Source: Schmidtea nova
Lineage: Eukaryota
Assembly: GCA_044892505.1 (NCBI GenBank)
Contig: CM097884.1
Location: forward strand, 47,864,001-47,928,000
Direction of reading: 5' to 3'
DNA: 64,000 nt
Program-made: the position numbers and the translations under genes
Shown here: in pieces, positions 4,261 to 64,000 of the stretch
Numbering within the stretch: the stretch's first letter is position 1
How the letters are laid out: each line of letters begins with the position of its first letter
The notes under the pieces: generated by a model
What the model was told of the DNA's origin: nothing
Databases searched by the model: none
The model's input: only the letters and a program-made list of their open reading frames with translations

Positions 4261-4264
4261 GCCA

Positions 4265-7162: not shown

Positions 7163-7460
7163 TTATTCATCTTTATTGCAATGTTGATCTAGTTGATGTT
7201 TCGCAATTTCATAACTTTTATTAAAATTATTGATTATAAATAGACGACTGCATGTTCTATTTTCAATTCTTTTGTAATCAATCTTACATTGACTATAAAA
7301 TGGAAATGTGTTGTACACAAATGTAAAATATTGTAATGCAACTTCCCAATTACCATCTAAATAAATTAGATTTTGAAGATTGACCATGAATTTATTGGCT
7401 TGATTATCTGGATGTATTAGTGGACAGCTATTACTTGGTAATATAGTATAAAAATTCACT
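7163..7460 (-). pseudogene. Polinton minor capsid (penton-like) protein, N-terminal fragment
   Basis: FYTILPSNSCPLIHPDNQANKF...IYLDGNWEVAL matches the FYxxLPSN...WEVxL start of Polinton minor capsid proteins; paralogous to 28980 and 30691. Confidence 0.8.
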
Positions 7461-13400: not shown

Positions 13401-14521
13401 TTTATTTAATAACTTTTATTTGGACTACTAAAATTTTTCAATTATGAGAATTTGTGATAAAAAAAAATAAATAAAAAAATTCATTAGATGAAATCCTATA
13501 TAATATTTTCATTATCAATATACAAATAATAAATCCCAAATAATAACAGTAAAAAATAACTAAATGAATCAAATAAAAACGGTGTCGACATGGGATGTCC
13601 AAAGGGCATGATTTTTTGGACCTCCCATACCGATAACGCATATATAATAAGATAAATATAACATAAAAATAAAATGAGGAAATCCTTACGCTCAGTGCGG
13701 CTTCCTAATGGGTTTTTCGGAAACAAAAATTGATTTTCTTGATTTTTTCGGTAAATTCTTGATGGGTCCGTTAACTGCGGCTCTCCTGATTAATTTTTTC
13801 TTTTTCAAATTGAAATTGAAATTCTGTAGATTTAGAAATACCAAAAATCTCAACCAAATAAAAAAAATTTCCACAAAAATTCTGATTATTGCCATTTTGA
13901 TGGCGGTATATATACCATCGATTTTGCGTTACCTTCACTAGTGTAATAAAACAAATTGTTCTAGAATTTTCTTTTTAATTTTTCTAAATTAATTCTAATG
14001 ATTTTCCAAAAATTAAATCCATATTTTTGTGTAATAATTTTTTATAAAACACAATTAATTTATTTTAATTCAAAATTTTTATTTTTGAATCGAAATTTGT
14101 TCGATTTGATTTAATTTACGATATTTCGATCAATATTAGTTCTTTTTATTGTTAATGTGAAATATTTTGATAAAATCACAATTTTCTGCTAAAATTTGGT
14201 TAAATATTTTCTGTACTGAGGTTTTATAACACAATTCTGTTCTTTATGGGCTTTTCAATGGGTTTTCCGCCTATTCTAACTTTCAAACGTTCTTCTTTTG
14301 ACGATTTTTAATTTTTCTCGAGATTTCAGTGTAAGGACTTGCAAATTTACAGCTAGCGCGTACTCTACTGGTTGATGTGTTTTGAGTCCACTTAACCTTT
14401 TGGTGTTTTCCACTTAATCGCTTGGATTTTTAATGGATGTTTGGGTTAAAACTGAATCTTGGGCGCTCTCTACCTATGGGGTTATCGCTTTATTAAAACA
14501 ATTTGTAGTTTTTGCCCAACA
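10445..14521 (-). mobile_element. Giant solo-LTR-like unit A1 (4077 bp)
   Basis: Ends TGGTGGG...CCCAACA, ATTT on both sides (10441-10444, 14522-14525), colinear with 51176-54920 in conserved blocks. Confidence 0.75.
11086..11354 (+). CDS. Putative two-exon 73-aa ORF inside unit A1 (intron 11142-11188)
   Basis: Splicing a 47-nt GT-AG intron gives an open frame MPTNPTNRAPIFHKSPKK...SHE*; a similar arrangement lies at the equivalent offset in A2. Confidence 0.3.
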
Positions 14522-26170: not shown

Positions 26171-26611
26171 TTAAATGTATTTAATTAATGTATTTATTTC
26201 AATAAAAATATTTTCCACATAATTTTTAAAATCCAAAGTTTTTATTCCAAGCATAACAACTTTGCTGCTTGTAAATATGTTGACACATATTGAATCAAAT
26301 TTATTTAGGTGTAATGAGCGGGATATTTCCTGTTCGAACCAGCAACGAAATTTCTTTTGCAATTAGTATAGATTAATAAATTTGCCGACATCAACCGTCG
26401 CAGTAATTGATTGAATCTCTAAATTTTAATCTTGAATTTAAAATCGTCCGGCTTCAATGGTTGTTTGCAACCCATTACCCGACACTTGCCAGATCTAAAA
26501 ACGATGATGAGGTACTTGCCGCTTTCCTCTGTAACTTTTTTGCGGTTTGCCACTAGGAAATATCATGTCGGGAACTAAACATTTACCTTTATAATTGATG
26601 TTGCTAAATAT
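26171..26611 (-). pseudogene. Divergent TATA-binding-protein-fold gene (two TBP repeats), disrupted
   Basis: Repeat 1 FSNINYKG...LIIVFRSGKCRVMGCK; repeat 2 IQSITATVDVGKFINL...FEQEISRSL...VNIFTSSKVVMLG; two frameshifts and one stop. Confidence 0.7.
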
Positions 26612-26689
26612 TTTTAAATAATTAAACAAATATAAACAATACTAATAATTAATTAATTAATTAAGAAATGGAATTAAGAAATGATGCCG

Positions 26690-27260
26690 TTTATCAAAAG
26701 GTTGGCCCATTGGGAGTGGGAAAACATTATTTGTATGTTCATTATTACAATCTAACATGTTTAAATAGATATTCAATAACATTTATTGGCACAAGGGAGT
26801 CGATGAAGAAAATGCATTGACTCAAGATCAGTTTTGTAAATTATAAATAACCATTATAAAATGGTTTGATAAAAATTGATCATCTAGATTACAAGTTGAT
26901 GTTATAATTATCGATGATTTGCATCAGGAAGCCAATAAAGAAAAGAATTTCAACAATTTATTTACAAATATAAGTAGACACTTGGGTGTTACAGTTATTT
27001 ACATTACTCAAAATTTATTCCATCAAGGTGGTAGTTATAGAACCCGAAATTTAAATGTACAATACTTGGTTATATTCAAAAATCTTTGAGATGTAACAAC
27101 TATTTATTTTATTGTAAGACATCCTTACCTTAATGATAGAAAATGTTTACTTGATTCATTTCAAGACGCAACTAAAATTCCACACGGATATTTTTTTTCG
27201 ACTATACACAACAATGTCCTGATGATTTTCGTATAAGACCTGACATTTTCAATAAAAAGG
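26690..27260 (+). pseudogene. A32-like genome-packaging ATPase
   Basis: Walker A GSGKT at ~26713-26727; Walker B IIIDDL; LFTNISRHLGVTVIYITQNLFHQG; RNLNVQYLVIFKN. Confidence 0.9.
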
Positions 27261-27479
27261 TATAACAGTTTATAAACAAAAATGAAATTGTAAAATTAAT
27301 TTATTAAAATGTCATTAAAAAACGTCATTGTTCAACCCGTTATTGGTAAACCTGATAAACAACAAGAAATATTAAACAAGGTTAAATAGATGTCATTAAA
27401 GAAGATTTCATTAAAAAAAGAAGACACAAATCAAGAAATCGATAAAAAGAAGAAGAAATGAATTACATTATAAGCAAAA

Positions 27480-27790
27480 CAAAGTTGCAAAAATTTGATA
27501 ATAATTAAAATTGAACGCAGTGTACCTTATTTTAATGCCTTGATAAAGGCATTAATAAACGTATGACAATTTTACAGGCTTTTCCCCCATTTGTTATTGA
27601 TGATTTTCTTGAAGTTATTGTTAATGTAATTTGTGGTAATGTAAATATTAGTAAAGCCAAAAAATATCTTTAATCTCTCATCAATACTAAAAATCGTGAT
27701 CTTCTATGTAGAGTTATTTATAAACAAAATGGTGGTTTCTTATGTACATTAATTTCAATAGTATTATCAGCTATAAGTGCATTTCATTGT
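27480..27790 (+). pseudogene. Small conserved Polinton protein upstream of the integrase (core-protein-like)
   Basis: EVIVNVICGNV and YKQNGGFLCTLISIVLSAI resemble the QxGGFL-hydrophobic motif of small Polinton proteins. Confidence 0.6.
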
Positions 27791-27886
27791 TAAATTCATA
27801 AATTGGTGCTAAAGTTTCAATAGATATTAACATCTTGTTGTGACAATGAAGGAAATATTATCCAAAAAGAGCAAACCAAAAATAAA

Positions 27887-28973
27887 TTGAAAAAGATTTG
27901 GACAAACCCAAAAGATCCTGGTTGGTTTGCTGGGGTAAATAAAATTTTAAAAAGAGTAAATAATTCAAAGAAAGATACACAAAAATGGTTATCTGATCAA
28001 TTGGCATATAGTTTAAATAAACCAATGTTTAAAAGATTTCCTACACGAAGTTATAAAACAATTGGTGTTGATGATTTATGGCAAATGGATTTAATGGAAA
28101 TGATACCTTTTTCAAAATTGAATAAAGAAAACAAGTATATTTTGATTGTTATTGATGTATTTAGGCGCTATGCACGTGCAGCTCCAGCAAAATCTAAATC
28201 TGCAAATGAAATGGCTGAAGCTATAAAAAACTTTATTTGTAGATGGGCAACCTCAAAATTTGCAAACTGATTTGGATAAGATTTTAATTTAATTTTAATT
28301 AATTTTAATTTAATTTTAATTTAATTTTAATTAATTTTAATTTTATTCTAGGTAAAGAATTTCATAATAGTAAAGTTAAAGAAATTATCAAGGTTATTAA
28401 TCATTACTTGGTATTTTCATAATTCAATGCAGCTGTTGTTGAAAAATTCAATCGAACTCTGAGAGATAAATTGAAAAGATACTTTTTTTTAAGGAAATAA
28501 ATACATGTTTTGCGTAAATTGATTTATAGTAATAATTATTCTCAACGTAAAAAAATACAGGGAAAGTGACCAATTGATGTTTATCCTACAAATAATATGA
28601 ATAGATAGTTATCTGAACAAATAAAATCAATAACTAAAAAACCGAAATACAGAGTAGGGGATCATATTAGAATCAGTAAAATCAATGGATTCCCTTTTAG
28701 AATTTTGACAATAATTGGAGCGATGAAGTTTATCAAATTTTGAAAATCTATAAAAATCAGAAACCGGTCATGTATTTTATTACCGATTCTGAAAAAAAAT
28801 GATATCAGTGGAAAATTCTATGAACAAGAGTTACAAGTCATTCCAGTCCCATCAGTATTCAGAATTCAAAAGATTTAAAAACCAAAAATGATTGGAAATA
28901 TAAACAATATTATGTTCAACGGCATGGATATGAAAAACCAACTTGGATATCTAGAAACCAATTGATTAAATAA
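27887..28973 (+). pseudogene. Polinton integrase with chromodomain, with a degenerate intron at 28276-28351
   Basis: LWQMDLMEM, YILIVIDVF, QTDLG^KEFHN, VVEKFNRTLRD, GKFYEQELQ; clearly homologous to 7456-8435. Confidence 0.92.
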
Positions 28974-28979
28974 ATATTA

Positions 28980-30697
28980 TGAAAGAAAACTAGTTTTCTA
29001 TGATTTTGCCTATTAATGCGTGTTCTCTTATTTATTTTAATAATGAAGCTAGTAATTATAATGTAGAATTTCAAGATCCGATTTATTTAAAAAATAATGA
29101 CGATATGAAAGTTTCTTTGATTGAATTTACTTTTGTGTATAATTTGTTCCCGTATTATAGTAATTCTTTTATTCAAATTGTAAAAGAAATTTAAGAAATC
29201 AATTATTTGAGAATCAAAAATGTAAGTAATGTATTCGAAGTTTTAAATTCTCAACCTAGTTCAGATACTGATGTATTTATTGAAAAATATGAAAATTTAT
29301 TGTTTGTTTGCCCACATGTTCCATTTAAAATTATATTTCCAGATCTCGAACATGTAAAATGTTATGGATTGGATAGTTAAACAATTATTAGTGAAAATGA
29401 TCATTGTCGATTAAAATTATTAATAATAATAATTATTGTGAATAGTTAAGGTCAATTAAGGGTTATGTTGTGATGAAATTTATTTATGATAAAGTATATG
29501 TTATTTATTAGTATATATTATTTATGTAGTGATTGTTTGTATTGGAAAAATGAAGGGCCCAGCCGAGTCACCAGTAAAAGTGTGTCGGGACAACTTGGGT
29601 GTATGTTGTGTACGTGCTTGTGGGTGTGAGTGTGTGCTTGCCTGTGTAAGAATGCAGAATCACAATTTTTATTATAAATAACAACTTTTAATTTAAATAA
29701 CAACTTTTATTATAAATAACAACACGTACTCGCGATTTTGCTGGGGATTAATATTTCATTCGTTAAATAAAAATCTTTTTCTTTTTGATTTCAATCGGTT
29801 GATAATTTGTTTTTGTATCTTCGAGAATTTTATAATTCGTTTCTTTAATTATTTTTTCTATTTGTCTTGGTTAATTGTCACTTTAATAATTCGTTAATTT
29901 CATATTTTCATTTCATATCTCCACTCTTTCATAATAATCGATTTCTTTTATTTTTGCGTTTGCAATTTCTATCGTCTGATACTTTTATGAAACTTTTACT
30001 GATATTTTCTTTAATAAATTCTTTATAGGCTTCTTTAAAACTGGCTAAATTAATTTAGTAAGCTGAAGGCATCTTTTAAAATCATTTAAATTTTTTTAAT
30101 CAATTTTCTTTAATTTTTCAAATTCATATAGTAATTTATATTACTATAGGAATTGATTTTTTATTTTCATAATTTTAATTTATTATGTTATTTTTTTAAG
30201 TTTTAAGTTAACCATAAAAAAGTGATAATAATAAACACAAGCATCACACAAAACACAAATAATTAACAACTAAAGGGATTACTATGTTCCCAAAACACAA
30301 TTTATCATAAAAATTGACATTTACTATAATAGATTATGACATTAAGACCGTTAATTATCATTATTTTCAAAAAGAATTATTCATTACGACATTACCTAAA
30401 TTGAAAGGATATTTAATGAAAATAAATCTATCTCCATTCAAAGAAATGAAACTTGTCAATAATGAATTGGTTATTGGCGATGTACGAGTTCCCCTGCTAA
30501 AATGAATTTGGATAAAAAAAATATGACTAGGGTGAAGTTGTATAAATTGAAATAAAAAACCCAATGTATTTGCCAATTTCAACATCAACTATAAACAACA
30601 TTGAAATCAATATTCGTGATGACAGTGGAAAATTAATTAAATTTTTAAAAGAAACAAACTTACATTTGACTCAGCATTTTCGTAAAATAAATGAATA
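28980..30697 (+). pseudogene. Minor capsid/penton-like gene 1, interrupted by unrelated sequence (~29520-30300)
   Basis: N-terminus ILPINAC...VSLIEFTFVYN; C-terminus VIGDVRVPLLK...IEINIRDDSGK...HFRKINE*. Confidence 0.72.
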
Positions 30698-31703
30698 AAA
30701 AAGATTTTTATGTTAATTTACCAAGTAATTCTTGCCCATTGACCCATCCTAATAAAAAAGCTGGAATATTTAATGTGGAATATCAAAATCCAATATATTT
30801 GGATGGTAGTTAAGAAGTTGCTCTTATGGAGTTTACTTTTGTGTACAATGAATTTCCATTTTATAATAGTTCAAGAATAAAATTTACTAGAAGCAATTTA
30901 CATTCCAGTTATGAATATTTCAATTTTAACAAAGAAAAGAATGAATATGAAATTAGTCACGATTCTAATTATTATTTGATGTACATTGACGGCCATATTT
31001 TAAGTGTAAATTTTAAATATTTTCCATTTCAAATAATATTCGATAGTGTTGAACAATCTCAAAAATTATGATTTAAAGAAAAAGCTGTGAATTTTGATAA
31101 TGAATTAAATAAAATCGTAATTAATAATAAAGAATTTGTTGATACTATACGATTTACTATAACTTATAATTACTCGGTTGAATAAACTGATAAATTTAAA
31201 GAAGATTTGATAATAAATGGTCTTACTCAATTATCGGATCAAATTGAGAGTTTTTATCCTCATCCATTTAAATTGATTGATATTAAAGAAAGAAAATTAA
31301 CTAAATTAATTCTTGAAGATGATATCAATTGTGTTAAATTTAGTAGAAATTTGACCAATTCATTAGTATTAGTAGATCAAGAATTTATAGAGAAAATTAT
31401 TGATGGCTTATATTATCCACAAGTCCTATATTTTCATCTGCAAATTTTCATCTATATGGATATAATTCAACCAATTCTTGTTAGTGACATGTCAGTTCCC
31501 CTATTGAAATGTATTTGGGTTGAAAAACATAGAAATGAAGATTAAGTACAAATTGTTGTGAAAATACAATGTACTTGCCTGTCAGTTCCACATATATAAA
31601 CAATATAGAAATCAATATTCATGACGACACTGGAAAAATAGTTAAATTTACAAAAGAAGGCAAGACTTACTTGACATTACATTTCCATAAAATAAATGAA
31701 TAA
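30691..31703 (+). pseudogene. Minor capsid/penton-like gene 2
   Basis: FYVNLPSNSCP...EVALMEFTFVYN...YMDIIQPILVSDMSVPLLK...IEINIHDDTGK...HFHKINE*; internal stops. Confidence 0.8.
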
Positions 31704-31990
31704 TACAAATATTATCAGTTTCTATAGCAACATTCAATCAGGTCGAGAATTAGCATATCTTGTAGATAAACAGTATAGTACTGGTTGGTTGAAAACAATA
31801 GGAAGATTTGCATTACCAATTCTCAGACATTGGAAATTTCGGTATGAAAACTGCCAATGGCGTGTTAAATAGTAATTCAAAATTTTTACCTGCACTAAAG
31901 TCCAGTGCCATTTCTGAAATTAAAGGTTGGTTACCCGATGTAATTCATCATTTGCCACAAGTTTTTAATAGTGACTGATTTGTTTAACGA
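31696..31990 (+). pseudogene. Small Polinton virion/core-like protein
   Basis: IQSGRELAY...QYSTGWLKTIGRFALPILR resembles the QxGxG...RxAxPxL proteins found upstream of Polinton major capsid genes. Confidence 0.55.
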
Positions 31991-32050
31991 AAATAAAATT
32001 AAACGAAATGGCAGAATTCTTAAGCGTAAAAAAATATGAAAAAACATCGA

Positions 32051-32636
32051 CCCGGCCTACCAAAGGTCTCCAGTCAGTAGTTATTTACATATTGCAGCTT
32101 ATAATGATCATGTGCAGTACAAATATGAACAGCAATAGGAACAAATGTCACCAACACCTTCAACATGCTGCATGCGCACATGTACACATACGCACTCACA
32201 CACAGACATTTACAGAATATGACTTCTCACACCAGGCACACATCAGTGATATCAGTGAGTCATGTTAATGAAGGATTGTCACTTTCTTAGAATTTGACTA
32301 CTCACACTAAAAGCACAACAGTGATAACAGTGAGTTCGCAAAAAGACTCCCATTGCCCGTAACGCCTTCGAACTGGAAACACATCTGCATGAGGAAGGGT
32401 CACACATCTCCACTGATTCACTGGCAAAAGTGGTCGATACAAGGCCTAAACGAGTGCGCCTTGTTATCCAGATGAAAGGTAATATAATGAAGTACTAACC
32501 CTCTCAGCACTACAGACATTCAGTATTCGTGTGTGTTTGTGACATTTGTTCCCCTTCCTGTTCATTAGAAGCGGTTCATTATAAACAGCAATATGTAAAT
32601 AACTGCCTGACTGGAGACTTTTGGTAGGCCGGGGTA
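32051..32636 (+). mobile_element. Internally deleted Tc1 derivative of the 43887-45331 family
   Basis: Same TIRs (CCCGGCCTACCAAA...TTTGGTAGGCCGGGGTA); left part matches ~43890-44160, right part ~45041-45331. Confidence 0.92.
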
Positions 32637-32676
32637 TAAACAAAAGAATGAAAAGATATGGAACAATATTTGAAAA

Positions 32677-33480
32677 ATGATTAACGCAAAATCTGAATTA
32701 TGTGTTTTGAACAGACCATCTCTACAAGAAGTGATTGAACAAGGTGCATTTGAAGATTTTTACCAAACAAATTTCAATACAGATCCTGGAACATCATCTA
32801 TTCAATTTTACATCAACGGATCTCAGACTGAATATTTAGATTTGAATGATATTTAACTATCTCTTCAGGTCAAAGTTGTAAACAAATCTAGTGAAAATTT
32901 GCGAATGGATGCTGATGTTACTCCCAATAATTTCTTTTTCAAACTCTTTTAAAAGAAGCTGTATAAATGTTTAATTCTACAAAGGTTGAAGGAGGAAATG
33001 ATACATTTACACACAAAGCCATGATTGAAACTATTTTCAACTACAATAATGATACAAAACACACATCTTTAACTCCAATGGGATAAAATGAACATGACCT
33101 TACTAGAAAACATGGATTGCAAAATCAAAGCCATTTTCAATTTGTTCTCAATTACATTTCTATTTCATGGAAGAACCCAAGTATTTATTACCAGATTTTA
33201 GTGTTCAAATTAAATTGACAAGATTAAACCTAGCCTATAGTTTAACATGCACAAAAATTGAACCTAAAATTGAATTATTAGAGGCAAAATTAATGGTTAG
33301 AAGAGTTCGAGTTGAACCATCAGTTTTGGCTGGGCATCAAATTGGACTTGGTACAAGAAATGCAATTTATCCAATAAAAAATATGGAAGTTGTAGAATTT
33401 TCATTGCCAATGGGTTCTTCATCATTTTAAAATGAACAAATCTTTGATTAGGGGCCATTACCAAACTTTATTCTTGTTGC
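32677..33480 (+). pseudogene. Polinton major capsid (double jelly-roll) protein, 3'-truncated
   Basis: AKSELCVL, EYLDLND, KAMIETIFNY, YLLPDFSVQIKLTR, AKLMVRRVRVEPSVL, AIYPIKNMEV. Confidence 0.88.
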
Positions 33481-41240: not shown

Positions 41241-43031
41241 CTAATTGATTTGCTGAAGAGCTATGTTAAATTTAAGAACGTCTATCAACTTCATTCCATA
41301 TTCACTTTTCAGATTTCCGTATAGAAAATCTGGAGATTTTGAATTCAAGTCTACCATTGACATAATCAACCGACCATCAAACGAAGAGAATTTAATTTTA
41401 AGATGTTCTAAATTGTGTTTCACCAGCCATTTTTCAACGTCTTTAGTGGTCCATTTGTTAATTTCCGAACAAGTATCAATTGTAATTGCGTTAGCGTCTC
41501 GACTTTCTAAATGTGTTGCTTCGTTTGCAATGGCAGTTTTCGGCACAATTAAAGCTTCAGTGTCATTCATGAAAAGCGTTATGTTATTTAAAAGTCCAGA
41601 AAAAGACTCGTTGAAGTTTCGTCGGTCACTGAATTCATAATACGTCTTGCTACCCATTATGATTCCCAGCCAACTCATTGGTTTATATTTAAATTCGACA
41701 ATTAAAGGAACAATTGGTTTCTTTAAGGAAAAGGCATATTCGGCTTCAGTGCGACAATTAGGACTTGTTCGATATGATTCCGATATCGCCATTACAAAGA
41801 TTTGAGAGTTCTCAATGCCGTCTGCCATGGCTTCAAGGGTAGAACCTTTCATCTGGTCTACATCGATCCAGACATTAATTTTTGACTTTAACAATTCATC
41901 TCGAATCGACAAAACTGTCGCCTTATTAGCCCAAGAATAGCTGAGAAACACATCGAATTTCCATTTTTCTTTAGCTGCTTTCAACTTCGATATTTGTGCC
42001 GACTTCAGCCTCTGTTTAGATTGACCTTTACTGTCGATAAGCCACGAGATTCCTTCGAAGCATTTTTTAATTTTAGATGACGGATGGCTTTCGAAAGGTC
42101 TTATCAAAGAACTTAACTTAAAGTCGATAATCAAAGTCTGTTTGATTTCTTTATCAAAGCAGAGATTCCACAAAGTCCCGAGACACTTCTCAATGTCATC
42201 ATCGCAACTCGGATTTGCAATTATATCAATTATTAATTGAATGCCATTTTCATTGACAATAGACTTCTTCATGTTGTCATTCGCTGAAAGGCATTTCAGG
42301 CCGTTCACCAGCTCCCAAATAGCGAATCCATTATTGCGTTTTTTTTTGTTTTCCATGGCACTTCTGATTTGACCGATTAGCAAATTAATGGTGTTTTTTC
42401 CTTCTTCAAGCAAATGCAACTCATTTTCCTTTACCAAACAAGCCAATGTCAAAATAGATACCAAACCTATGAAATCCGAATCATTCATGTGAACTAATTC
42501 CACTAGTCCTTCTTTCAAGTCTTGAGACTGAAAGATTCCTTCATAGCCAGGTACTCGAACGACATTGTGGATGATGCTTATAGAGCTTTTCATCACATAA
42601 TAAATGTTTGTACTTTTCAAGTTCTGGATGTAAGGTTTGTGGAGCACATTTGTGATTAACAGCTGAGGTAGTTTTGTGTTGATTATACTATTGGCTATTT
42701 CTTGGGTCGTGTCACAATAGTTCCAGAGACCATTCAAAGCATAATATGTAGAAAACCAAATCGTATCGTTGTTGAAAAATCCAACATCGTTAAATTTACA
42801 AATAACTTCTGCTATAATGTTTACATAATCCAGTCTCATTAATTCAGTAGTTATAGCTTTTAAATGAGTTTTGAGATCAAAATATGATTGAGAAAGATTT
42901 TGAAAAATGTGGTAATCTGAAATCTCAGTTAATGGATCTTTTATTTGACTTATTTTTTCTAGTGTTTCCTTTATGAAGTTCACAGCTTGTTGTGCTGAAA
43001 AAGATTTGTCGTAATATGGCATAGCTGTGGC
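41241..43031 (-). CDS. ARM-repeat / TIR / SAM-like protein (5' end lost in the gap)
   Basis: About 595 uninterrupted codons: ARM-like helices (ALNGLWNY, LKCLSANDNMK, LGTLWNLCFD), TIR (FDVFLSYSW, VWIDVDQM, YRTSPNCRTEAEYA, KPIVPL, WLGII), C-terminal SAM-like WTTKDVEKWL. Confidence 0.9.
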   Translation of the reverse strand, partial: ATAMPYYDKSFSAQQAVNFIKETLEKISQIKDPLTEISDYHIFQNLSQSYFDLKTHLKAITTELMRLDYVNIIAEVICKFNDVGFFNNDTIWFSTYYALNGLWNYCDTTQEIANSIINTKLPQLLITNVLHKPYIQNLKSTNIYYVMKSSISIIHNVVRVPGYEGIFQSQDLKEGLVELVHMNDSDFIGLVSILTLACLVKENELHLLEEGKNTINLLIGQIRSAMENKKKRNNGFAIWELVNGLKCLSANDNMKKSIVNENGIQLIIDIIANPSCDDDIEKCLGTLWNLCFDKEIKQTLIIDFKLSSLIRPFESHPSSKIKKCFEGISWLIDSKGQSKQRLKSAQISKLKAAKEKWKFDVFLSYSWANKATVLSIRDELLKSKINVWIDVDQMKGSTLEAMADGIENSQIFVMAISESYRTSPNCRTEAEYAFSLKKPIVPLIVEFKYKPMSWLGIIMGSKTYYEFSDRRNFNESFSGLLNNITLFMNDTEALIVPKTAIANEATHLESRDANAITIDTCSEINKWTTKDVEKWLVKHNLEHLKIKFSSFDGRLIMSMVDLNSKSPDFLYGNLKSEYGMKLIDVLKFNIALQQIN

Positions 43032-43174
43032 NNNNNNNNNNNNNNNNNNNNNNNNNNNNNNNNNNNNNNNNNNNNNNNNNNNNNNNNNNNNNNNNNNNNN
43101 NNNNNNNNNNNNNNNNNNNNNNNNNNNNNNNNNNNNNNNNNNNNNNNNNNNNNNNNNNNNNNNNNNNNNNNNNN
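43032..43174. other. Assembly gap (Ns)
   Basis: Run of N. Confidence 1.
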
Positions 43175-43886
43175 GAATTTTATTATATAGCAATAATAAA
43201 AAGATAAATTTCCGTCTGTATAAAACGCAATATCAGGAAATAAATAATTAATAATGGCTGTGTCCAAATATCGTGTAACTAATAAAAAAATTATTTTACA
43301 AAATTATTTAATACATTATTTGTTTTAATTTCCTTTGCTGTATACAAACGGAAATTTATAAGCAGAGAAATTTTACGTGACGATTAAGAGACTTTTGTGT
43401 GTAAGTTGGGCAGGTGTAAATAGATCCGGATGTATTTATTATCCATTTATTTAGCTGACACGTGCATCTGGCTGCATGTCACCTCGAATGCTTTACGCAT
43501 TTATTTGCATTCGAATTGAAAATGGTGTATACCATTTATATTCGGCTGTAGTTTCAATTAATAAAACAATTCATTTACAAGGAAATAAATTAGATATTCA
43601 AAGTAAAAGATTAGTCATTAGTTATCGAACTCCAGTCAGTAAATCACACCCATTATTTTTTACGAGTATTTTTCATTTAATCATATAAATAAATGGTGTG
43701 AAATTTGATAGAAGAAAGTTTAAATATGAGTAGAAACTTGAAATTCAAATACCCTTATTAAATAATATTATTGTGTAAATAATTTGATTTTTGATTTATA
43801 TTAAGTGTTATTAACTTTTCATTTTTGACTGCTCAAAGTTTTTTTATCACGATTATTTACCTTTTAATTTAATAGTTCATTGAACA

Positions 43887-49447: not shown

Positions 49448-51175
49448 GTTGCAAAAATATAATTTTCTTTAATGTAAATGAAACTTCCGTATCTATAATT
49501 GGAAATATTATTATGCTAAATCAGTTTAGCATTATTAACATCTTTTGTTTAGATCACCTTTGGTCTTTTTCTTTTGTAATTTAGAAATTTTCATTTTTTA
49601 ACCCTTTTGTGAACAATGACATTTATAAACGTCATGCTACTACATGGCTGCAAAATATAAATCATCATTTTCGGATTTTATTTTATAAATAAAAAAATTT
49701 CTTTCAGTCAGCTGTTTTCAAAATTTCTTTGTCTTAAAAAATGCGGAAAATATGGCACATGACATTCTGGAAACAACATTTTTAAAAGTGCGTCCACGAA
49801 AGTGTTAAAGACTATAGATCAGTAAATTTTTTATTGGCACATGAATTTTTGACAGTCCTTTTCAATTGTTATATCAAAATTATATTTATCTTATTTATTA
49901 TATTCTAAACATTCGCACATTTTTTGCCTTCTCAAACGATCCAACAAATCCTACAGCCGTATTTAAATTTACGCATTTAGTCATATATTTTTATATAATA
50001 CAATAAAAAATAAATTTATAATATTAATACATTCTATATTTGATAAGCGAAAGTAATAGATTAAAATATTCATTGTATAAATGTCTTTACAAAATCATAA
50101 ATAATACAAATTTATCTTCTATTTGTACCATTACAATATTCATAAACTAATAAAAGTTAGAATATGAAAAATAAATTTAGAAACTTAAAACTATAGACAT
50201 CTTATTTTATAGAAATGTACAGCGAAAAAATACTGATATTTATCATAAATATATTTAAATATTCTCAAATCTTACATAGTAATTTGCAAATCAGATGCCA
50301 ATGATCAGTTTGTTGATTTTACTGAAAGTTTAAATTGTGATTAATTCAAGAGTTATGACAATCAAAAAGTAAAACATAATTTTCAAATACATTTTGTTAA
50401 TTTATATTTTTATTAATTATGCTAAATTATGTTAAAGTGGCAATATTAATAATTAAGAATATAAATAAACTTTTAAATCATTATGGTATTTTTCAAATAA
50501 ATATAAGAAACCATTTCCTAAAAGATTCTTGCAAAATATTTCGACAGTTTAAATCTAAAAAAGTCATAACAAAAGGGTCTAATAATTAAAATTATTAGTA
50601 AATTTCCAATAGAAGTATGAGTAAATTATCAATAAAAGAAAAAAACTGTATTTGAGTTTTAGAGCAGTCAACTGGTTATGATAGGTTTGGTCTACAATCA
50701 TGTAGGGTTTCTCATTTGAAAGTATCGTGACTGAACAAATAAAGATAAACAACCAAAAAATTTTATTAAACAAAATAGATTGTTGCTGGATGCTGCATTT
50801 CATTAACATGTTTGAACTCCATCTTCTCTTATGTTTTCTTTTTATCTATATGAATGTGCTGCTTGCATTTATTTAAATTCAAATTCTCTAAGTCTCCCTT
50901 GTTATTAAAACAACTGTTTATAAAATGTAGATATTTTTAATTTAATTATATATATTATATAATATTTTTAATTTAATTATATATAAGTTATACATCTTAA
51001 AATTATTAAAAAAAAATATATATATATATATATATGACGAAGGCACTAAAGCATTTTTTATGGTGTTAATAATGAATTCATTAGAGTTTTTTTGGTAATC
51101 GTAATAATTTTTCTGTATTTATATTGTAAATGAGTTTTAATACAAAGTAAAATTAAATACATTATTCGTCATCGT

Positions 51176-54100
51176 TGGTGGGTCGTTGATCGTCAATATG
51201 ACCTTGACGTTACTATGGCTCGCATCAACAACTCAACACATAAAACATTAACATTACCATCTTGTTACCCGTCACTATGTAACGTTGGTACTGTAACAAG
51301 TGGGTGGGTATTCGCAATCAGTGAGCGTCGTCAATACGAAACTATGATTGACCGAATATCTCCTGGGTCCAAGGGCTACCGATAGAAGGTTTATTGCCCA
51401 TTTTGTCCCTTCTTCAATGATTTATCCATAAGCTTTCAATAAAAATTTTATCGGAAATTCAACATAAACACTCTACATAACTATAAATTCATTAATACAT
51501 CCAAATAAATTATTCCGAGCATCAAAAACACTAATATAACCCTATTTTTACCAATATTGCATTTTATGATATTTAATACATAAAATATTATATTTTTATA
51601 GAAAAATTTTTATCCACATTTGAAATTTAAGAAAAATTTTAATTATTACCGTAATTTACTCCAGTTTAGAAATAATAAAAATAAAATTTCCGTTTGTTTA
51701 AAATTTCTAATTTAATCAAAAGGACAAATTTACTCAATTTAAAGTTTATATTAATTTTAAATGTAATTTCCTGAATTTTTCGCTAAATTGATAAATTAAC
51801 TATTACTATAGTTCAGATCAACAAGAAATGGACCTTTCCAGAAACTACGAAACCAGAGGAAAATTCTCCCGCCCCAAACGGGTCAATCCGATTAGAATTC
51901 GAGCTCCTATGAAGCAAAATAGCCCGCTCTACCAACCAAGTAAAATTTCGATTTTTTCAGAATTATAATTTATTTTGATCAATTTTAGAAAATTTCTTGA
52001 AGAGAATATGTGGGAGATGGCCCTTCAAGTACTACAAACCGAAAAAAAAATCCTTGCCGGGGACTCTTACCCCTCAAACTGAATTTTTATCAATAAATCT
52101 TTAGAAAAAAATTTTTTTCGTTTTTACTCTTTTTCATTTGAGTTTTTATTATTTTTATTAAAAATAAACTGTAATGTAAATGGCCTATTTGGCTGGGTAT
52201 ATTAAATTTTATATGGTAGGTTTGAATGATAGAAATTTTTGTATGGTTTTTCTGGATGTATGTTGCCGACTAACATGACTGTGTAGAATCTTCAGTATTG
52301 TTTGCTTGTGTGTATATAACTATTGAATGCTAATAAATGATACGGTGTATGTGTGTATATTGTATTTTAAGTATACGTTGCTTGTGTATTAGTATGGGAA
52401 ATGTTATTGAATGAAATGGATGTAATTTTTTGCAAACAGGGATGCAATATGATTTTTGAGATATCGTGGGGGTATTTATAATATATATATATAAATTATA
52501 TAAAATAATTTTAAAATTAAAATAATAATAATAATTTTTATATTAAAATAATAATAATAATTTTTATAATACAATAAAAAAAATTTCCAATTTTTAAATT
52601 ATAAGTTTCTATAATGCTCTTTATAAATAATTTTATAAAAATATGATCACAAAACTTCCAATTTTTATGATACACATTTCCACAATAATTTATAATTTTA
52701 TGGATATGATAATAAAATTTATAATTTTCATAATATACACTTTTATAATACTTTTTATAAAAATTTTTTAATTTATAATTTTATGAAAGTAATATAATAA
52801 TAAAATTTCCAATTTTTATAATATAAATTTTTATAATACTTTTTATAAGTTTTAAATTTATAATTTTATGAAAATGATATACTAATAAAATTCCCAATTT
52901 TATATTATAAATTTTTATAATGCTTTTTATAATTTTAATAATATAATAATACCATTTTTAATTTTTATAATATGAATTTTTATATTCGAATTTTTATATT
53001 TTAAGTATATATATATATAGTAAAAAGAAAATTTTCCTATAGAATTTTGAAATTTTGGATTTTTTGAAATGATAAAATTTTCATTATAATAATAATATTT
53101 TTGATTTAAAAAATTTTTATGGGTTTCAAATATAAATTTTTAATTATGAATTCTTAGGAATTTTATAAAATAACCAAATCTTTTATAACAATATTCGGAG
53201 AATTTTTGGTTCACAATTATTCATTATAAAAATTTTCCAATATAATAAAAAGTAAATTTTTATTTTTTGAAACGAAATTCACATAATAATAAATTTTTCA
53301 TCCATACATTTCGAAATCTAAATAAGCATTTAATCTAAAAATTTTTTATATGCTAAATAAAAATAAAAAATAAAAATAAGTTATAAATTTTTCAACGAAA
53401 TTTTTTCGACATCGAATAAAGGTAATTTCGGTTTCATTATTATTCCATCGGAGTTGAGCATTAATTCGAACTATTTACTTTTTTAATATCGGTTTTTAAT
53501 ATTCTGGATCTTGGATGAGAAGAAAATTATTGTGAAGGTGAAGGCGAAGGACGAGTAAAATGTTTTTGCATCATCATTTTTCCTAATGGAAAAGACATTG
53601 TTGGAAAGATTTGTCTTTACGTTTTCATGTGGTATTACTTTTCAATATATTAAAATTTATAAATTCGGATAAGCTACATTTATTATAAATAAATATCATT
53701 AATATAACACCTTGCCTTGGGCCAAGCCACTGTTCCCCAGTTGGGATGAAGTGATCTTGGATGGTTAGGCTATTCACCTGATTCGGACAAATGGACTGAT
53801 CGATTTACGTATCGAACCAGCGATCCGCTCAGGCTACTTCCACCCGATCGGCACGAGGCCAGACACAGGCTTCAGAGGGTAAGGAAGTAAAAAAAAAAAT
53901 TATTTAGTTATTTGATAGTTTGAGTTACTAAAATTTTTGTCGGATTATGGGAATTTGTGATATATAAAATAATAATAATAATAAATAAAATAAAACAAAT
54001 TTTTAGATATAATCCTATATTATCAGTAATAAAAGAATACAATAAATGAATTAAATGACATAAAAATAAATAAGAACTGTGTCGACATGGGAGGTCCAAA

Positions 54101-54920
54101 GGGCATGACTCTCGGGCATCCCATGCCGATAACGCATATACAAAATTAAGATAATAATAATAAAAAAAAATAAACCTTACGCTTCGTGTGGTTTCTTCTC
54201 AAAAATTAATAAAGTTTAATAAACAATAATTTTGTAAAATTTCTAGACCGAAAATTTTTCACAAATTCTTTACAAAAATTGTGTTTCTTGCCATTTTGAT
54301 GGCGGTATATATACCGTCGATTTTCGTCACCTTCACTAGTGTAATAAAACAAATTGTTCTAGAACTTTCCATTTAATTTTTCTAAATTAATTCTAATGAT
54401 TTTCCGAAAATTAAATCCATATTTTTGTGTAATAATTTTTTACAAACCACAAATAATTTATTTTAATCCAAAATTTTCATTTTTGAATCGAAATTTGTTC
54501 GATTTAATTTAATTTACGATATTTCAATCAATATTAATTCTTTTTATTGTTAATGTGAAATATTTTGCTAAAATCACAATTTTCGGCTAAAATTCTGTTA
54601 ATTTTTTCTGCATGAAGGTTTTATAACACAATTCCGTTATTTATGGGCATTTTCAATGGGTTTTCCGCCTTATTCTAACTTTTAAACGTTCCTCTTTTGA
54701 TGGTATTTGATTTTTCTCGAGGTTTCAATGTAAGAGCTCTCAGACTCACAGCTAGCGCGTTCTCTACTGGCTGATGTGTTTTGAGTTTACTTCACCTTTT
54801 GTTGTTTTTCACTTAATCGTTTCGATTTTTAATGGATATTTGGGTTAAAACTGAATCTTGCGCGCTCTCTACCTATGGGGTTATCGCTCCGTTAAAACAA
54901 TTTGTGGTTTTTGCCCAACA
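51176..54920 (-). mobile_element. Giant LTR-like unit A2 (3745 bp), probable terminal repeat of the element extending beyond 64000
   Basis: TGGTGGG...CCCAACA ends, colinear with A1, but flanks differ (TCGT vs TAAA); directly abuts a multi-ORF cassette. Confidence 0.72.
51828..52104 (+). CDS. Putative two-exon 75-aa basic ORF inside unit A2 (intron 51940-51988)
   Basis: Removing a 49-nt GT-AG intron gives MDLSRNYETRGKFSRPKRVNPIRIRAPMKQNSP...EFLSINL*. Confidence 0.3.
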
Positions 54921-55255
54921 TAAAATACTCGGGGGCCCGCAAAAATTGCGTCCCGCAATTTCTCAGAGGGGTTAAGAACCAAGACTAATCAAAGGTCAAA
55001 AGGTTGTACATTATACACGAGCTACTTGGTCGTGATCATGCCATTCGCGACAATAAAAATAAAAAGTGATAAAAATTAATAAAAAGTTAATACGTATACA
55101 TTAATATGAGTCTACATCGACTCGCAAGCAAAAAAAAAATTAAATATAATGTAATATATGTGCCTACAGCGGCTAATCAAAGTTCAATATGAGTCTACAA
55201 CGACTCGGATAAAAGTTTTATCAAGTTTATTAAGTTTGTTAAATTATCAAATTTA

Positions 55256-59550: not shown

Positions 59551-59687
59551 TCTGAAATAATAATAACATGGGTAATTTCCTTTTGTTTATACATTTTTTG
59601 TTGCTCATGCTTATAAAATAATACTTGTATACATCGATTGAATTTAAAATCTTTACAATTTATTTACAAAGTTGTTTGATTGGATTA

Positions 59688-60115
59688 TTGATCGGCATAA
59701 CGGAGATATAATAAATTTCTGTTTACACTTTCTGTTAACAAAGCTTGTTCGTTTTTCCATTGTGCATAGGCTTGATTCAACATCCTGCTTAATAATTCAC
59801 ATTGCGTTTTCCATGATAACTCTTGTGTCATTGTCTGCTGATAAACCATCGGAGCTGATATTGATTGAGTCTGGCTATTTGTTTGTTGTTGATTTAATAC
59901 GAATGTCGTTGAATTGGGTTCATGGTTTCATCAAATAGTGGAATTTCGACTTGGTATATCAGGTTTCTATCGTCAATTGTTGGATTTTGCGTTTCATTTT
60001 CGATTACTGGGGTTTGTAGTGACCCTTCTCTTTCTCGTATATTGGTATCTCCTGGAAACGTTGGAACAGATGTTTGATAACTTTGACTCTCGTTGTTCGG
60101 ATTCATTTCTGTCAA
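59688..60115 (-). CDS. Small ORF 59894-60115 with a probable frameshifted continuation to 59688
   Basis: A second frame (PNSTTFVLNQQQ...YLRYADQ*) stays open from ~59920 to 59688. Confidence 0.45.
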
Positions 60116-60256
60116 TAATTACACAATATTATCATTTGTTTTTCCCAGTTTTGAGGTATTCATTTTTTGGATTTTTAAATTTTTATTATACAAATATATT
60201 CTACTTTTATAATACAATATAATTTTATACACTATATACACTGTTCCTTCCACTGG

Positions 60257-63200
60257 TTACTCTAACAACTTGCGTTTCGACGACACTCTGATGTTCTCAT
60301 CTGGCTCGTCGGTTAATATGACTTTTATGTCTTCTTGGGTGACTTTTGAACCATTATGTGTTACTATCTGACATACGAGTGTTCTAAACATTTCTTGTGA
60401 TACTTTCTTTTTGTAAACACAGATTTTATATTTTGTTTCTCGTTTTAATCCATTTATTCGGATTTCTCCTCCTTCTGCTCGTTGACATTTGACTGGATTA
60501 TCTCCTTTAATTTGCAATTTGACGCTACTCCAACATGCTTCTTCATTATCTGCTCCTTGTATTAATACTTGTACTGGTTTTCTCTTGTCATCCGCTTCCG
60601 TTCCTTTCAATGCTGACAGCATCAATATCAGTAATATTATGTCTTTTATTCGAGTTTTATGTAGACATGCTGTTCGTTTTTCATAATTTGAAGTTTCTTG
60701 CTTGGGTTCATCACTTTTGTTCCCAATTTCCTCGTTATTGCTTTTTCCATCATCTTTCTCGTCTTTGTCATTGTTTCTGTTGATACTTTCATTGTCATCT
60801 TTCTTTGTTTTGTTGTTGTTATTCTCTTCATCTTCATCGTCAGGCTCATTGTGATCATTAGCACCACCCTCGGTTCTGATTAAAATGTCGTCCTCGACAT
60901 TTATTAATTTTATTATTTCCTCATATCTTTTAGCTATTTCATCTGCTTCGGCTTTTATATTTGCTCTCTTGGTTATTTCATCTTTGGCGTTGTTCCAGCT
61001 TCGGTGAATTCTGCTTTCTTTTATATTTTCTTTCCATATGATGACTTGCTGATATAATTCATGTCTTTTAGATCCAATTCTTTCTTTTTCTTTTTTGTTG
61101 TTCGTAAACCTGAAATCAGGTCTTTGCAGCAATGCTTTAATCGTTTTACACATTTTCCATTTTCTTTTCATGGCTCTTTTCATTATCATATTTTCACCGT
61201 CTTCAAATCTGTCATTGACATTTATCACTCCTTCGTGCGTAACTGGATGTAACCATTTAATCATTTTTGCTGTTGTTTCGTCGGCATCTTTGTTCACTGC
61301 ATTTACTAATGGATTTGGATCTGAACTGAGCACTTCAATATCTTCTTCTGTAGCATTTGACATAATATATTTGACTATTTGATGGTTATTTGCTTGCACT
61401 GCATAAGATAACACCGTTTCATTTTTATCATCTCTTTCTTTAAAACTTGATCCGGTTCTCATCAGTTCTGCTATGAGTTTCTTGGATCCTCCTTTTTCAA
61501 TTGCTATCATCAAGGGTGTTTGATCTTTCCAGTTTTTTGTGTTGGTATGTTGCTTGCACTTTTCCATGAGTTTTATGATTTCAAATATTCTCTGTTCATT
61601 CCCACTTTTTATTGCGTGATATAATGGTATCTCATCTTTAAAACTGGCAATTGTAAAAAGTATTGGTAATCTTTCTTTTATGGTATTCATCGCTTCTGTC
61701 GTTTCATTTCCTTTGGCATATTCCTCAACCATTAAGCTTACTCCTCCCAATATTTCAAATAGATTTTTACTTTTTGACCATTCTGGCATAATTTCTTTGG
61801 TAATCTCAATGATCAATTCCATCTTTTTGCGGTGCTCCATTTTTACATCGTCAACTATCTTAGGTTGTTCAGATATTGTTGTTGGCTGATTTACTTTTCT
61901 GCTCACAGTTAATATACGGTGTAGCCAATCGTCATTTTTATTCTCTCGAAACATACATACTTGTCCTTTTCTGGTCATTTCTTGATTTGATTGTTCTGTC
62001 GCTGTTTCTCTTGTGCAATCCTCTTCAATTTGGTGTTTCAACTTCATCGTATTCAAATCAATTACAGATCCTTTTAACAGTTTTGGTATCAAGTCTGTTC
62101 CAATAATACATGATGCACCCAGTTGTTTTATTACTGTCAAATAAGTTGATATTTTTACTTTTCTGTATTCGATGTCTGTCCATATCTTTCCAACGATATT
62201 GACAGATTCTTTGCTGCATGTTATTACGTCTACTGATGTTTTCTCGATGCATAACCGTAACATTTCTGGTATCATATCGATATCTATTGCTGATATATTT
62301 GCGCCAGTATCAATCATCGCGTCTACTTTTACGCCATTAACTTCGATGTTAATTGTAAGTATTGGTCCAGCTGGAGTTTTCATCATTGCAATTATCGTTG
62401 TTTCGGGATTATCTTCACCTCTTGCTTTTCTGGTCAACTCGCTTCCTGAAATTTTATCAACAGTTAATTTATTACTTGTTTCGATTTGTATCGGGGTTAT
62501 TCCGATTTCTATATCATCATTCAGTGATTCTCCATCATATTTCAAGTGAAATGGTAAGTTAAATGGTAATCTCTCTTTTATCTCTTTGATCTTTGTTGTT
62601 AATGGTACATTCATCTTTATTTCTTCTAAACTCGGAAACTGAATTTTCAATCTGCACATCTGTGGATCATCGCTTGTTTGTTCCAGTTGTTTCCATTTTC
62701 TTATGATGTCATTAAATTGTGTTGAATACCAAGGGCATAAACGTCTGCATTTCTCGATTTCTCTCACTATCAATCTCATGTTTGATATATTTGCACTATT
62801 TTTTATAACCCATTTTAGTAATTCAGTTGTTGTTTCACATTGATTTCCTGCACTCTTGCTTAGGTTACTGATTAATCGTTCGGTCTTTGACGTTTCTGTT
62901 TGTCTTGATCTTTCGAGCTTCGCTGATTTCCTTTTTTCTTCCGACTTTTGATTCATTTTCGTCATTTCTTCTATGGTAATTGTTAACAATCTTTGTGCCA
63001 CTTCTTCTAATTTGATTGTCGTAGATTCATCCCATTTTTCGTCCATGTTACATATGTCATCATCGCTTCTTCTTTCTCTTCTTTTTCGGTTATATTTCTC
63101 CACAAACTTCTTCTTTTCTTCTCCCTCCATATCTTTTACTGAAAATTCATATATATTTCCCTTTCTTTCCATTTCAACGTCTGATAATTCGGTTATCATT

Positions 63201-63319
63201 TCATTTACTTTTTCTTCGATATTCTGTTGTAGTTGCATATTCATTGTTACTACTTCTTTTTCTTCTTCCTGTAAATTATCTTCCGAGTTTGCACTGATAA
63301 ATTTCTGATTCTCCTCCAT
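60257..63319 (-). CDS. 1020-aa multidomain protein: coiled coil, ubiquitin-like, retropepsin-like aspartic protease, ankyrin repeats, acidic linker, hydrophobic segment, FN3-like
   Basis: Protease VNGVKVDAMIDTGANISAI...IIGTDL; ankyrin WKDQTPLMIAIEKG and KNETVLSYAVQANNHQIVKYI; hydrophobic IILLILMLSAL; INGLKRETKYKICV. The UBL and FN3 calls are tentative. Confidence 0.85.
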   Translation of the reverse strand: MEENQKFISANSEDNLQEEEKEVVTMNMQLQQNIEEKVNEMITELSDVEMERKGNIYEFSVKDMEGEEKKKFVEKYNRKRRERRSDDDICNMDEKWDESTTIKLEEVAQRLLTITIEEMTKMNQKSEEKRKSAKLERSRQTETSKTERLISNLSKSAGNQCETTTELLKWVIKNSANISNMRLIVREIEKCRRLCPWYSTQFNDIIRKWKQLEQTSDDPQMCRLKIQFPSLEEIKMNVPLTTKIKEIKERLPFNLPFHLKYDGESLNDDIEIGITPIQIETSNKLTVDKISGSELTRKARGEDNPETTIIAMMKTPAGPILTINIEVNGVKVDAMIDTGANISAIDIDMIPEMLRLCIEKTSVDVITCSKESVNIVGKIWTDIEYRKVKISTYLTVIKQLGASCIIGTDLIPKLLKGSVIDLNTMKLKHQIEEDCTRETATEQSNQEMTRKGQVCMFRENKNDDWLHRILTVSRKVNQPTTISEQPKIVDDVKMEHRKKMELIIEITKEIMPEWSKSKNLFEILGGVSLMVEEYAKGNETTEAMNTIKERLPILFTIASFKDEIPLYHAIKSGNEQRIFEIIKLMEKCKQHTNTKNWKDQTPLMIAIEKGGSKKLIAELMRTGSSFKERDDKNETVLSYAVQANNHQIVKYIMSNATEEDIEVLSSDPNPLVNAVNKDADETTAKMIKWLHPVTHEGVINVNDRFEDGENMIMKRAMKRKWKMCKTIKALLQRPDFRFTNNKKEKERIGSKRHELYQQVIIWKENIKESRIHRSWNNAKDEITKRANIKAEADEIAKRYEEIIKLINVEDDILIRTEGGANDHNEPDDEDEENNNNKTKKDDNESINRNNDKDEKDDGKSNNEEIGNKSDEPKQETSNYEKRTACLHKTRIKDIILLILMLSALKGTEADDKRKPVQVLIQGADNEEACWSSVKLQIKGDNPVKCQRAEGGEIRINGLKRETKYKICVYKKKVSQEMFRTLVCQIVTHNGSKVTQEDIKVILTDEPDENIRVSSKRKLLE

Positions 63320-64000
63320 TTCTTTCTGAAAATCGGCTACAAACTTTCAAATGTTATGGGTTTTACTTCTTTATTTATCAGCTTTATTTCTTTGTAATTT
63401 CCTTTCGTCGTTTTTTAATAGATTTGACTCTTTATCTTTCGACTTTACGAACTTGGTTGGTTTGGTAGTATTATCAATTTGCGTTTAATATCGATTGCTG
63501 ATCTCTCGTTTATCTTCAATTGGATCTTCTTTGATTTATTTTCTTTTACTTCTTTCCTTTTCAATTAGACTTCTTTTTCTTCTTTTCTTCTATATATACC
63601 TCTTCAATAACTGATTGATTTGACTATCTCTTGGCTTGGCTTTGATCTGTTGGACAATCTAAATAAAAATATCGCTTCTTCATCGACGCCATTTACCCCC
63701 CTTTTATTCTGAGCTCAGATTTTAAATTATCTATATCTCGTAATAATTATCTATATGGTCGTATCAATTATCTATACCCTGATAATAATAATAATAATAA
63801 TAACAATAACAATAACTATACTAATACTATAATAACAGTAGGATCCTGTCGACTCGTTTTCATATTCATCTCGGCATTCGAGGTTAAAAAAAAATATCTT
63901 GTTCGTTATCTATTCATGGCCATTATTTTATTTCCTAAGTATTTCTCAATGTCTTTTATCTGCTCTTTTTAACGGTTTGTATTACTACACCTTAAGTATT

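Follow-up and report, generated by a model that had tools for sequence, protein, structure and literature searches.

The window analysed here is a stretch of 64,000 bp from the planarian Schmidtea nova (positions 47,864,001 to 47,928,000 of contig CM097884.1, assembly GCA_044892505.1). Near one end it contains an open reading frame (ORF) of 1,020 amino acids (aa), which a preliminary description had taken for a polyprotein of ubiquitin-like (UBL), retropepsin, ankyrin, internal signal or transmembrane (TM), and fibronectin type III (FN3)-like segments. The ORF sits inside a long terminal repeat (LTR) element of 21,049 bp that has TG...CA ends and a 4-bp target-site duplication (TSD). A Pfam scan and a comparison with the parent polyprotein showed that gag, reverse transcriptase (RT), RNase H and integrase are not encoded in these 21 kb. 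The sequence comparisons given below indicate that the ORF is very probably an in-frame deletion form of a Burro-type gypsy polyprotein, in an element (here called the satellite) whose enzymes are likely borrowed from a helper in the same genome.

The features of the element are collected in Table 1. Its two LTRs are identical at 3,742 of 3,744 aligned bases, the same 4 bases flank both ends, and two other copies share its build. The 5' LTR lies past the window end, so that the preliminary description had no view of the LTR pair. A primer binding site (PBS) of 18 nt, located 10 nt past the LTR, corresponds to the 3' terminus of tRNA-Pro(UGG) genes present in this genome; these genes form a tandem array with a 308-bp period at G000:C1:459.6 Mb and give 899 matches genome-wide. 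No purine run that could represent a polypurine tract was seen directly before the 3' LTR (window 54921-54960). In helper and satellite alike this interval is occupied by a GC-rich motif similar to the PBS side. Besides the 1,020-aa ORF, the element has ORFs of 160 (RING), 515, 191, 274 and 264 aa. The 515-aa product is 32% identical (E 3e-21) to that of an ORF in a sister family (family C), and the 264-aa product has no Pfam match above the cut-off.

Table 1. Features of the satellite element in window coordinates; rows marked 'extended' lie beyond the window.
Feature	Position	Strand	Remarks
3' LTR, 3,745 bp	51176..54920	(-)	TG...CA on element strand; 4-bp TSD at 51172-51175
Accessory ORF, 264 aa	55256..56050	(-)	predicted signal peptide, coiled coil and TM helix; intact in copies B, C, E1, F1
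Accessory ORF, 274 aa	56217..57041	(-)	predicted signal peptide, coiled coil and TM helix
Accessory ORF, 191 aa	57137..57712	(-)	basic coiled coil
Accessory ORF, 515 aa	58003..59550	(-)	coiled coil; homolog in sister Burro families
Remnant of 211-aa ORF	59685..60160	(-)	3.07-kb deletion near 59704 took away the TRAF and IAP genes seen in longer copies
ORF, 1,020 aa, probable in-frame deletion derivative of Burro-type polyprotein	60257..63319	(-)	stop-free
Single FN3-like domain (aa 914-997)	60329..60580	(-)	four conserved Cys; one of the parent's four repeats; no membrane anchor after it
Predicted internal signal peptide (aa ~892-910)	60590..60646	(-)	small residues at -3/-1
Ankyrin-repeat region (aa 490-817)	60869..61852	(-)	Pfam core 61352-61624; after integrase in parent
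Retropepsin (aa 308-430)	62030..62398	(-)	Pfam; DTG at 62303-62311; IIGTD motif
Ubiquitin/SUMO-like domain (aa 222-298)	62426..62656	(-)	PF11976 below cut-off; conserved in four Burro families
Helical domain (aa 140-221)	62657..62902	(-)	family unknown; directly before UBL in all families
Coiled-coil segment (aa 16-128)	62936..63274	(-)	parent aa 441-553, just past Gag zinc knuckles; 48% identity, E 5e-21
5' leader	63320..64000	(-)	runs on past window end to 5' LTR
RING ORF, 160 aa	extended 65536-66018		beyond window
tRNA-Pro PBS	extended 68452-68469		beyond window
5' LTR	extended 68480-72224		beyond window

Domain structure of the ORF

The five proposed segments hold, the protease and the ankyrin repeats firmly, the FN3 domain by its fold, and the UBL and the signal peptide less firmly. 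The retropepsin matches Pfam RVP at aa 323-414 (E 1.7e-5), its motifs are intact and its DTG (aa 337-339) lies exactly where the preliminary description had placed it. The ankyrin repeats, likewise predicted there, match Ank_2 at aa 566-656 (E 5.8e-11).

The C-terminal segment taken alone has no Pfam fn3 match; a repeat of the parent does match that family (E 1.1e-3). From an 18-row alignment of this segment with 17 homologous repeats of the same genome a seven-strand sandwich was modelled, with a predicted local distance difference test score (pLDDT) of 79.6. The leading Foldseek rows for this model were FN3 domains and monobodies (best E 0.025, probability 1.0), and in VIA the best match was an FN3 domain of integrin beta4 (Z 7.5, root-mean-square deviation 2.8, 76 aligned residues), at a level, Z < 8, that is common. 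Profile searches of the PDB also gave FN3 domains as best matches (E 2.5e-4 and 1.9e-3), as did the structure atlas, which serves as a lead only (0.87, 10 of 10 FN3). These scores are individually modest, yet all agree, and as modelled the segment is an FN3 domain, as had been suspected.

The UBL segment in isolation matches PF11976 (Rad60-SLD) with E 6.8e-4 and 19.8 bits, which is below the cut-off of 23.8. PF11976 is the SUMO-like family named for the Burro polyprotein in the available part of the description of that element (PMC6431247). It is matched by only one of ten homologous UBL segments, a PDB profile search with the helical and UBL regions returned no ubiquitin, and ubiquitin clusters of the structure atlas scored < 0.8. 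Folding UBL and protease as a single sequence gave a pLDDT of only 35.6. The ubiquitin-like call is sustained by a family match that stays under its threshold. For the preceding helical domain Pfam and PDB profile searches gave no convincing match.

Of the proposed internal signal or TM segment, the signal half is the more probable. The hydrophobic stretch before the FN3 domain has a peak of 13 residues (Kyte-Doolittle 2.39) and no 19-residue peak, and it is predicted to be signal-peptide-like, not an anchor. In the helper and the sister families, too, the FN3 array has this motif in front of it, and a similar one precedes Env. Processing of the product by its own retropepsin, as suggested earlier, remains a plausible possibility. 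No true relative of the ORF emerged when proteins from beyond this genome were searched. The search among longer proteins gave three ankyrin proteins from 3,143 candidates, which are not true relatives, the search among shorter proteins gave none from 4,102, and a search of representatives gave three bacterial repeat proteins that were judged spurious.

The helper element and the derivation of the ORF

The helper has the same ends as the satellite and encodes, within an internal region of 21 kb, one gypsy polyprotein of 4,906 aa. Besides gag, zinc knuckles and MATH, Pfam recognises in it protease, RT, RNase H, integrase and ankyrins, a viral fusion glycoprotein with E 5e-70 and, weakly, fn3, and its hydropathy profile shows a signal-Env-TM unit in the middle of the protein and a signal, four FN3 repeats, a TM segment and a tail at the end. 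It thus has the Burro layout of gag-MATH-SUMO-like-Env-PR-RT-RH-IN-ankyrin in one ORF of ~4,900 aa. The BCL2-like and dUTPase-like domains gave no Pfam match in the helper at E 0.1; for these PMC6431247 had used HHpred. Protein searches found no Burro record, and the likeness is thus one to the described layout.

The satellite of the window and the helper share LTR ends, PBS and a leader that is 82-86% identical. Moreover, the short ORF is collinear with the long one in four blocks of 39-57% identity: residues 16-128 correspond to parent residues 441-553, 140-298 to 1324-1482, ~299-439 to 2646-2786 and ~440-970 to 3810-4355. Four deletions, all of them in frame and near domain borders, remove ~3,900 residues, and with them gag, MATH, Env, RT, RNase H, integrase, three FN3 repeats and the anchor. 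The junction between UBL and protease is itself a deletion joint, where the parent has a further ~1,160 residues that comprise Env and the parts on either side of it. The window protease is 68% identical to that of the helper. The preliminary description had called for a protease phylogeny to decide between Gypsy and Ddi1; in trees of six rows each, made for the protease and for the helical-UBL region, window and helper were joined with support of 100/100 against four sister-family rows, which places the protease with the gypsy helper. The window row is long in the helical-UBL tree.

Abundance and age

Copies were counted with exact 24-mers as markers, so that the counts are lower bounds; reversed controls gave 0. 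The short-form marker occurs 1,495 times in the genome, the IAP marker 1,112 times and the helper RT marker 185 times, and satellites thus outnumber helpers ~8 to 1. The exact LTR-PBS junction was found 2,122 times and the 3' junction 2,160 times. When these junctions were paired over the first 50 Mb of C1, 73 of 86 elements could be bounded, of which 47 measure 12-17 kb, 11 measure 19-21 kb, 8 measure 9-11 kb and 7 are over 30 kb. The ~4,900-aa ORF was found in the 21-kb class. Among the 12-17-kb elements the ORF marker is present in 40 and the IAP marker in only 25, and in none of the 73 does the RT marker occur together with the short-form or the IAP marker. Those over 30 kb might have been complete forms that unite helper and accessory genes, but this reading was rejected, for none of the seven carries the RT marker.

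Full-length matches to the ORF at 97-100% number at least 40 (40 of 2,352 candidates were scored). The LTR pairs of 18 out of 20 elements are at least 99.7% alike and a 4-bp TSD flanks 15 of the 16 elements with both ends read, so both forms inserted recently. In four contig runs, all from a single study, 30 of 30 bins of the ORF are covered, which carries no information on expression. As to the shorter elements, all that the 10-kb class retains is the integrase end, the ankyrins, the FN3 array and the anchor, and it is ~97% identical to the helper. Solo LTRs of the window family, each with a 4-bp TSD, lie at window 10445-14521 and extended 72408-77006.

Selection within the satellite family

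Between window and helper the synonymous divergence (dS) is 1.0-1.5. The ratio of nonsynonymous to synonymous divergence (dN/dS) relative to the helper is 0.12 for the protease, 0.23 for the UBL, 0.24 for the ankyrins, 0.34-0.35 for the coil and helical parts and 0.47 for the signal and FN3. To look within the satellites, the first 20 further copies on C1 were taken by means of the exact ORF marker, a choice biased to young copies. The DTG is kept in all 20, and in 48 of 48 copies overall.

A simulation control that preserves the observed mutation spectrum was run 2,000 times. Among 21 satellite copies there were 196 synonymous variants where 119.6 were expected and 4 stops where 21.8 were expected, values reached by none of the simulations. 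The outcome was the same for the 211-aa, TRAF, IAP and coiled-coil ORFs, the 515-aa coiled-coil ORF having 128 synonymous variants against 52.8 expected. The relative dN/dS was 0.31 for the 211-aa ORF, 0.27 for TRAF, 0.38 for IAP and 0.20 for the coiled-coil ORF. Because these variants and stops were counted among satellite copies, purifying selection acts within the non-autonomous family itself.

Reciprocal gene content and sister families

In longer satellite copies three more genes are found: a 211-aa ORF, a full TRAF (Pfam RING, zf-TRAF and MATH) and an IAP (BIR and RING). The last two are present in 12 of the 20 sampled copies. This accessory block is missing from all 20 RT-bearing helper copies that were covered (3 whole elements and 17 3' halves), and in 16 of the 17 3' halves the 3' LTR follows ~1.2 kb after the helper ORF. 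The RING ORF is broken or truncated in four of four helpers and intact in eight of eight satellites. The loss of genes is thus reciprocal: the satellite lacks the replication genes, the helper the accessory block.

The same PBS was examined at 20 other places, and 15 of these belong to sister families. All four RT-bearing copies of these families that were read carry an intact RING ORF and, after the polyprotein, a TRAF-containing block that is 30-39% identical to that of the satellite. Its presence in autonomous sister copies suggests that the block is ancestral. The IAP, 191-, 274- and 264-aa ORFs have no clear homologs in the sister-family copies.

Several other elements of this group were encountered. 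The sister element at G000:C1:4620981+ has an unbroken ORF of 3,960 aa in which an in-frame deletion has removed RT, RNase H and integrase; the borders of this protease-to-ankyrin deletion nearly equal those in the window ORF, the junction occurs 12 times in the genome, and the element retains gag, Env and the accessory block. Another sister-family element (G000:C1:20147227+) has gag and accessory genes only, in 13 kb of internal sequence. A family of 11-12-kb elements with the same PBS carries a lone gag ORF of ~900 aa and a 3' motif like that of the window family. Finally, the RT-integrase block is 78% identical between the helper and one sister family and the flanks are 28-48% identical, which suggests a module swap.

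Exchange of LTRs

Trees were made for 22 LTRs from the 450 bases at the start and the 450 at the end of each; four elements whose LTR had not been read whole were dropped. In these trees satellite and helper labels are intermixed: the satellite label needs six changes, and it formed one clade in 0 of 200 bootstraps. In line with this, the window copy and a copy on C2 have identical ORFs, yet their LTRs are only 72-81% alike. LTRs have thus been swapped between satellite and helper. Such a mosaic pattern is known in retroviral biology as the outcome of template switching between co-packaged RNAs, and we infer that helper and satellite RNAs are co-packaged. The C2 copy lies at G000:C2:106.33-106.36 Mb, in surroundings that we take, from the starts of the ORFs, to be a Maverick/Polinton-like element.

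Other features of the window

An open frame of 650 codons at window 41241-43193 (-) starts inside a stretch of N and has ARM-like, TIR_2 (E 2e-21) and weak SAM matches. Window 3370-8430 and ~26600-33450 hold fragments of a different gypsy element, with matches to zinc knuckle, protease and chromodomain, and of Maverick/Polinton-like DNA.

Discussion

The structure of the element and its collinear deletions are direct observations, as are the copy numbers, the purifying selection, the mosaic of LTRs and the reciprocal content of genes. The explanation that we consider very probable is that the ORF is the in-frame deleted polyprotein of a non-autonomous family that is mobilised by a Burro-type helper in the same genome. 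The satellite RNA would be packaged in helper particles and primed by tRNA-Pro, the helper enzymes would reverse-transcribe and integrate it, and template switching would occur between the two RNAs. Of these steps, mobilisation by the Gag, RT and integrase of the helper is highly likely. The retropepsin would divide the 1,020-aa product that contains it into a coil, a helical-UBL, a protease and an ankyrin piece, and the host signal peptidase would free one unanchored FN3 domain into the secretory route. The satellite products (ankyrin, extra protease, RING, TRAF, IAP and membrane proteins) may then aid all copies active in the cell, the helper included, and such a shared benefit would keep the satellite genes under selection and let the helper shed the block. 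This division of labour may be real, but we would place its chances somewhat below even. A further possibility, which we consider somewhat doubtful, is that a giant env-bearing retroelement has split into a functional two-part genome: a replication and entry unit and a ~8 times commoner host-control unit, which would be co-packaged, swap LTRs and depend on each other, and of which the sister families would represent earlier steps.

Several points weigh against the main explanation. The evidence is genomic, and the UBL assignment has a sub-threshold match. An unbroken ORF is found in only 10 of the 20 sampled copies, the spectrum-corrected relative dN/dS of the short ORF is 0.50, and constraint is weakest in FN3 (0.66-0.70 before correction). 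TRAF and IAP are absent from the window copy and from 8 of the 20 sampled copies, which have multiplied all the same, and therefore these genes are not needed in cis. Furthermore, only 20 of at least 185 helper 3' ends were covered, and the helper could instead obtain TRAF-type proteins from the sister families of this genome.

The best surviving alternative, with a chance that likewise falls a little short of even, is that the satellite is a pure parasite with a cis advantage: translation of the ORF, or co-assembly of its product with helper Gag, would favour the packaging of its own RNA, and the helper would gain nothing. The wider retention of the ORF marker than of the IAP marker in the 12-17-kb elements fits this explanation, as do the origin of the N-terminal coil from the Gag-adjacent part of the parent and the ~8-fold excess of satellites, and there is a precedent in the gag-pol fusion of the mouse IAP 1-delta-1 element (available part of PMC6466679). 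However, neither a capsid nor a nucleocapsid domain is present in the ORF, packaging during translation would not account for selection on the downstream TRAF, IAP and coiled-coil ORFs, and the loss of the block and the RING gene by the helper is left unexplained. We lean towards shared benefit, although cis advantage is equally probable, and both can hold, the former for TRAF and IAP and the latter for the 1,020-aa ORF.

It is very unlikely that the ORF is a decaying deletion product with a low dN/dS inherited from an autonomous past. Half of the sampled copies are indeed broken, and the 10-kb class illustrates that simple deletion products multiply too, but the selection seen among satellite copies already largely refutes decay, and neither four deletions that are all in frame and near domain borders, nor a frame that stayed open across dS > 1 from the helper, nor the DTG in all 48 copies would be expected from it. 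A host or domesticated gene, for instance a Ddi1-like ubiquitin-dependent protease, as a UBL beside a retropepsin and the best, weak PDB sequence matches of the protease (Ddi1, E 0.015) might suggest, is refuted as the origin by an intronless ORF within paired LTRs and TSD in ~1,500 dispersed copies, by the identity of its protease to a gypsy protease upstream of RT, by the deletion joint between UBL and protease, and by the lack of a Pfam match to HDD or UBA. The layout of Ddi1/DDI2 is UBL-HDD-retropepsin-UBA. The window ORF shares with it a UBL and a retropepsin in one chain, but is mobile, multi-copy and devoid of HDD and UBA, as the preliminary description had remarked; since the adjacency arose as a deletion joint, the likeness is convergent.

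The nearest known element is Burro1/GYPSM1 of planarians, for which the available part of PMC6431247 describes an ORF of 4,873 aa with SUMO-like PF11976, in-frame Env, ankyrin, BIR and Smc. The helper resembles it in its single ORF with gag, CCHC knuckles, MATH, SUMO-like domain, Env before protease, RT, RNase H, integrase and ankyrins; the BIR and coiled-coil motifs are here found in the satellite, whereas the helper is without these genes and the window element is without gag, Env, RT, RNase H and integrase. That part of the paper mentions neither a C-terminal module of signal peptide, FN3 array and TM segment nor a non-autonomous partner. The earlier statement that no element with this architecture is known was thus half right, as the combination of SUMO-like domain, protease and ankyrin is known from Burro. 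In another planarian BURRO1 is abundant, active and controlled by PIWI, according to the accessible text of PMC8532177.

Two non-autonomous systems invite comparison, each as far as the available parts of the respective papers describe it. Like the satellite, mouse IAP 1-delta-1 is non-autonomous, makes a new fusion protein through an in-frame internal deletion and outdoes its full-length form (PMC6466679). It has, however, one deletion of 1.9 kb and keeps part of Gag, whereas the satellite has four deletions (~3,900 residues), lies at dS > 1 and holds genes that its helper lacks. RLG_Cereba and RLG_Quinta of wheat are a long-lived autonomous/non-autonomous pair with shared LTR ends and PBS that was proposed to be mutualistic (PMC11302176). 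Quinta supplies Gag, which its helper encodes too; the window satellite is without Gag but carries genes that its helper does not have, which makes the loss reciprocal. Thus the domains and the parent layout (from Burro) and non-autonomous partners with retained ORFs are already known, whereas a complementary split over two genomes was not found in print. In the literature we found no non-autonomous Burro, FN3 module in Burro or reciprocal split, although the original Burro paper, its supplements or Repbase may show Burro forms without pol.

The satellite explains the odd protein of the window and offers a tractable case of a non-autonomous retroelement that has long kept working genes; the extra genes kept by many copies are predicted to include regulators of cell death and signalling. 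It also adds to the Burro polyprotein an unreported protein of signal peptide, FN3 array and membrane anchor. From lower-bound counts (1,495 copies of 17-25 kb, in a genome of 1.25 Gb) it can be reckoned that ~2% of the genome may consist of the satellite alone, and an annotation based on RT would miss it. If the two-part genome is real, its host-control kit would comprise IAP, TRAF, the RING ligase, ankyrin, secreted FN3 and membrane proteins, and the pair would be like a bipartite virus living in the genome. If the reciprocal loss means mutual dependence, the copies without TRAF and IAP would be cheaters, and the system would provide a genomic model of how multipartite viral genomes arise and of how transposon copies cooperate or cheat.

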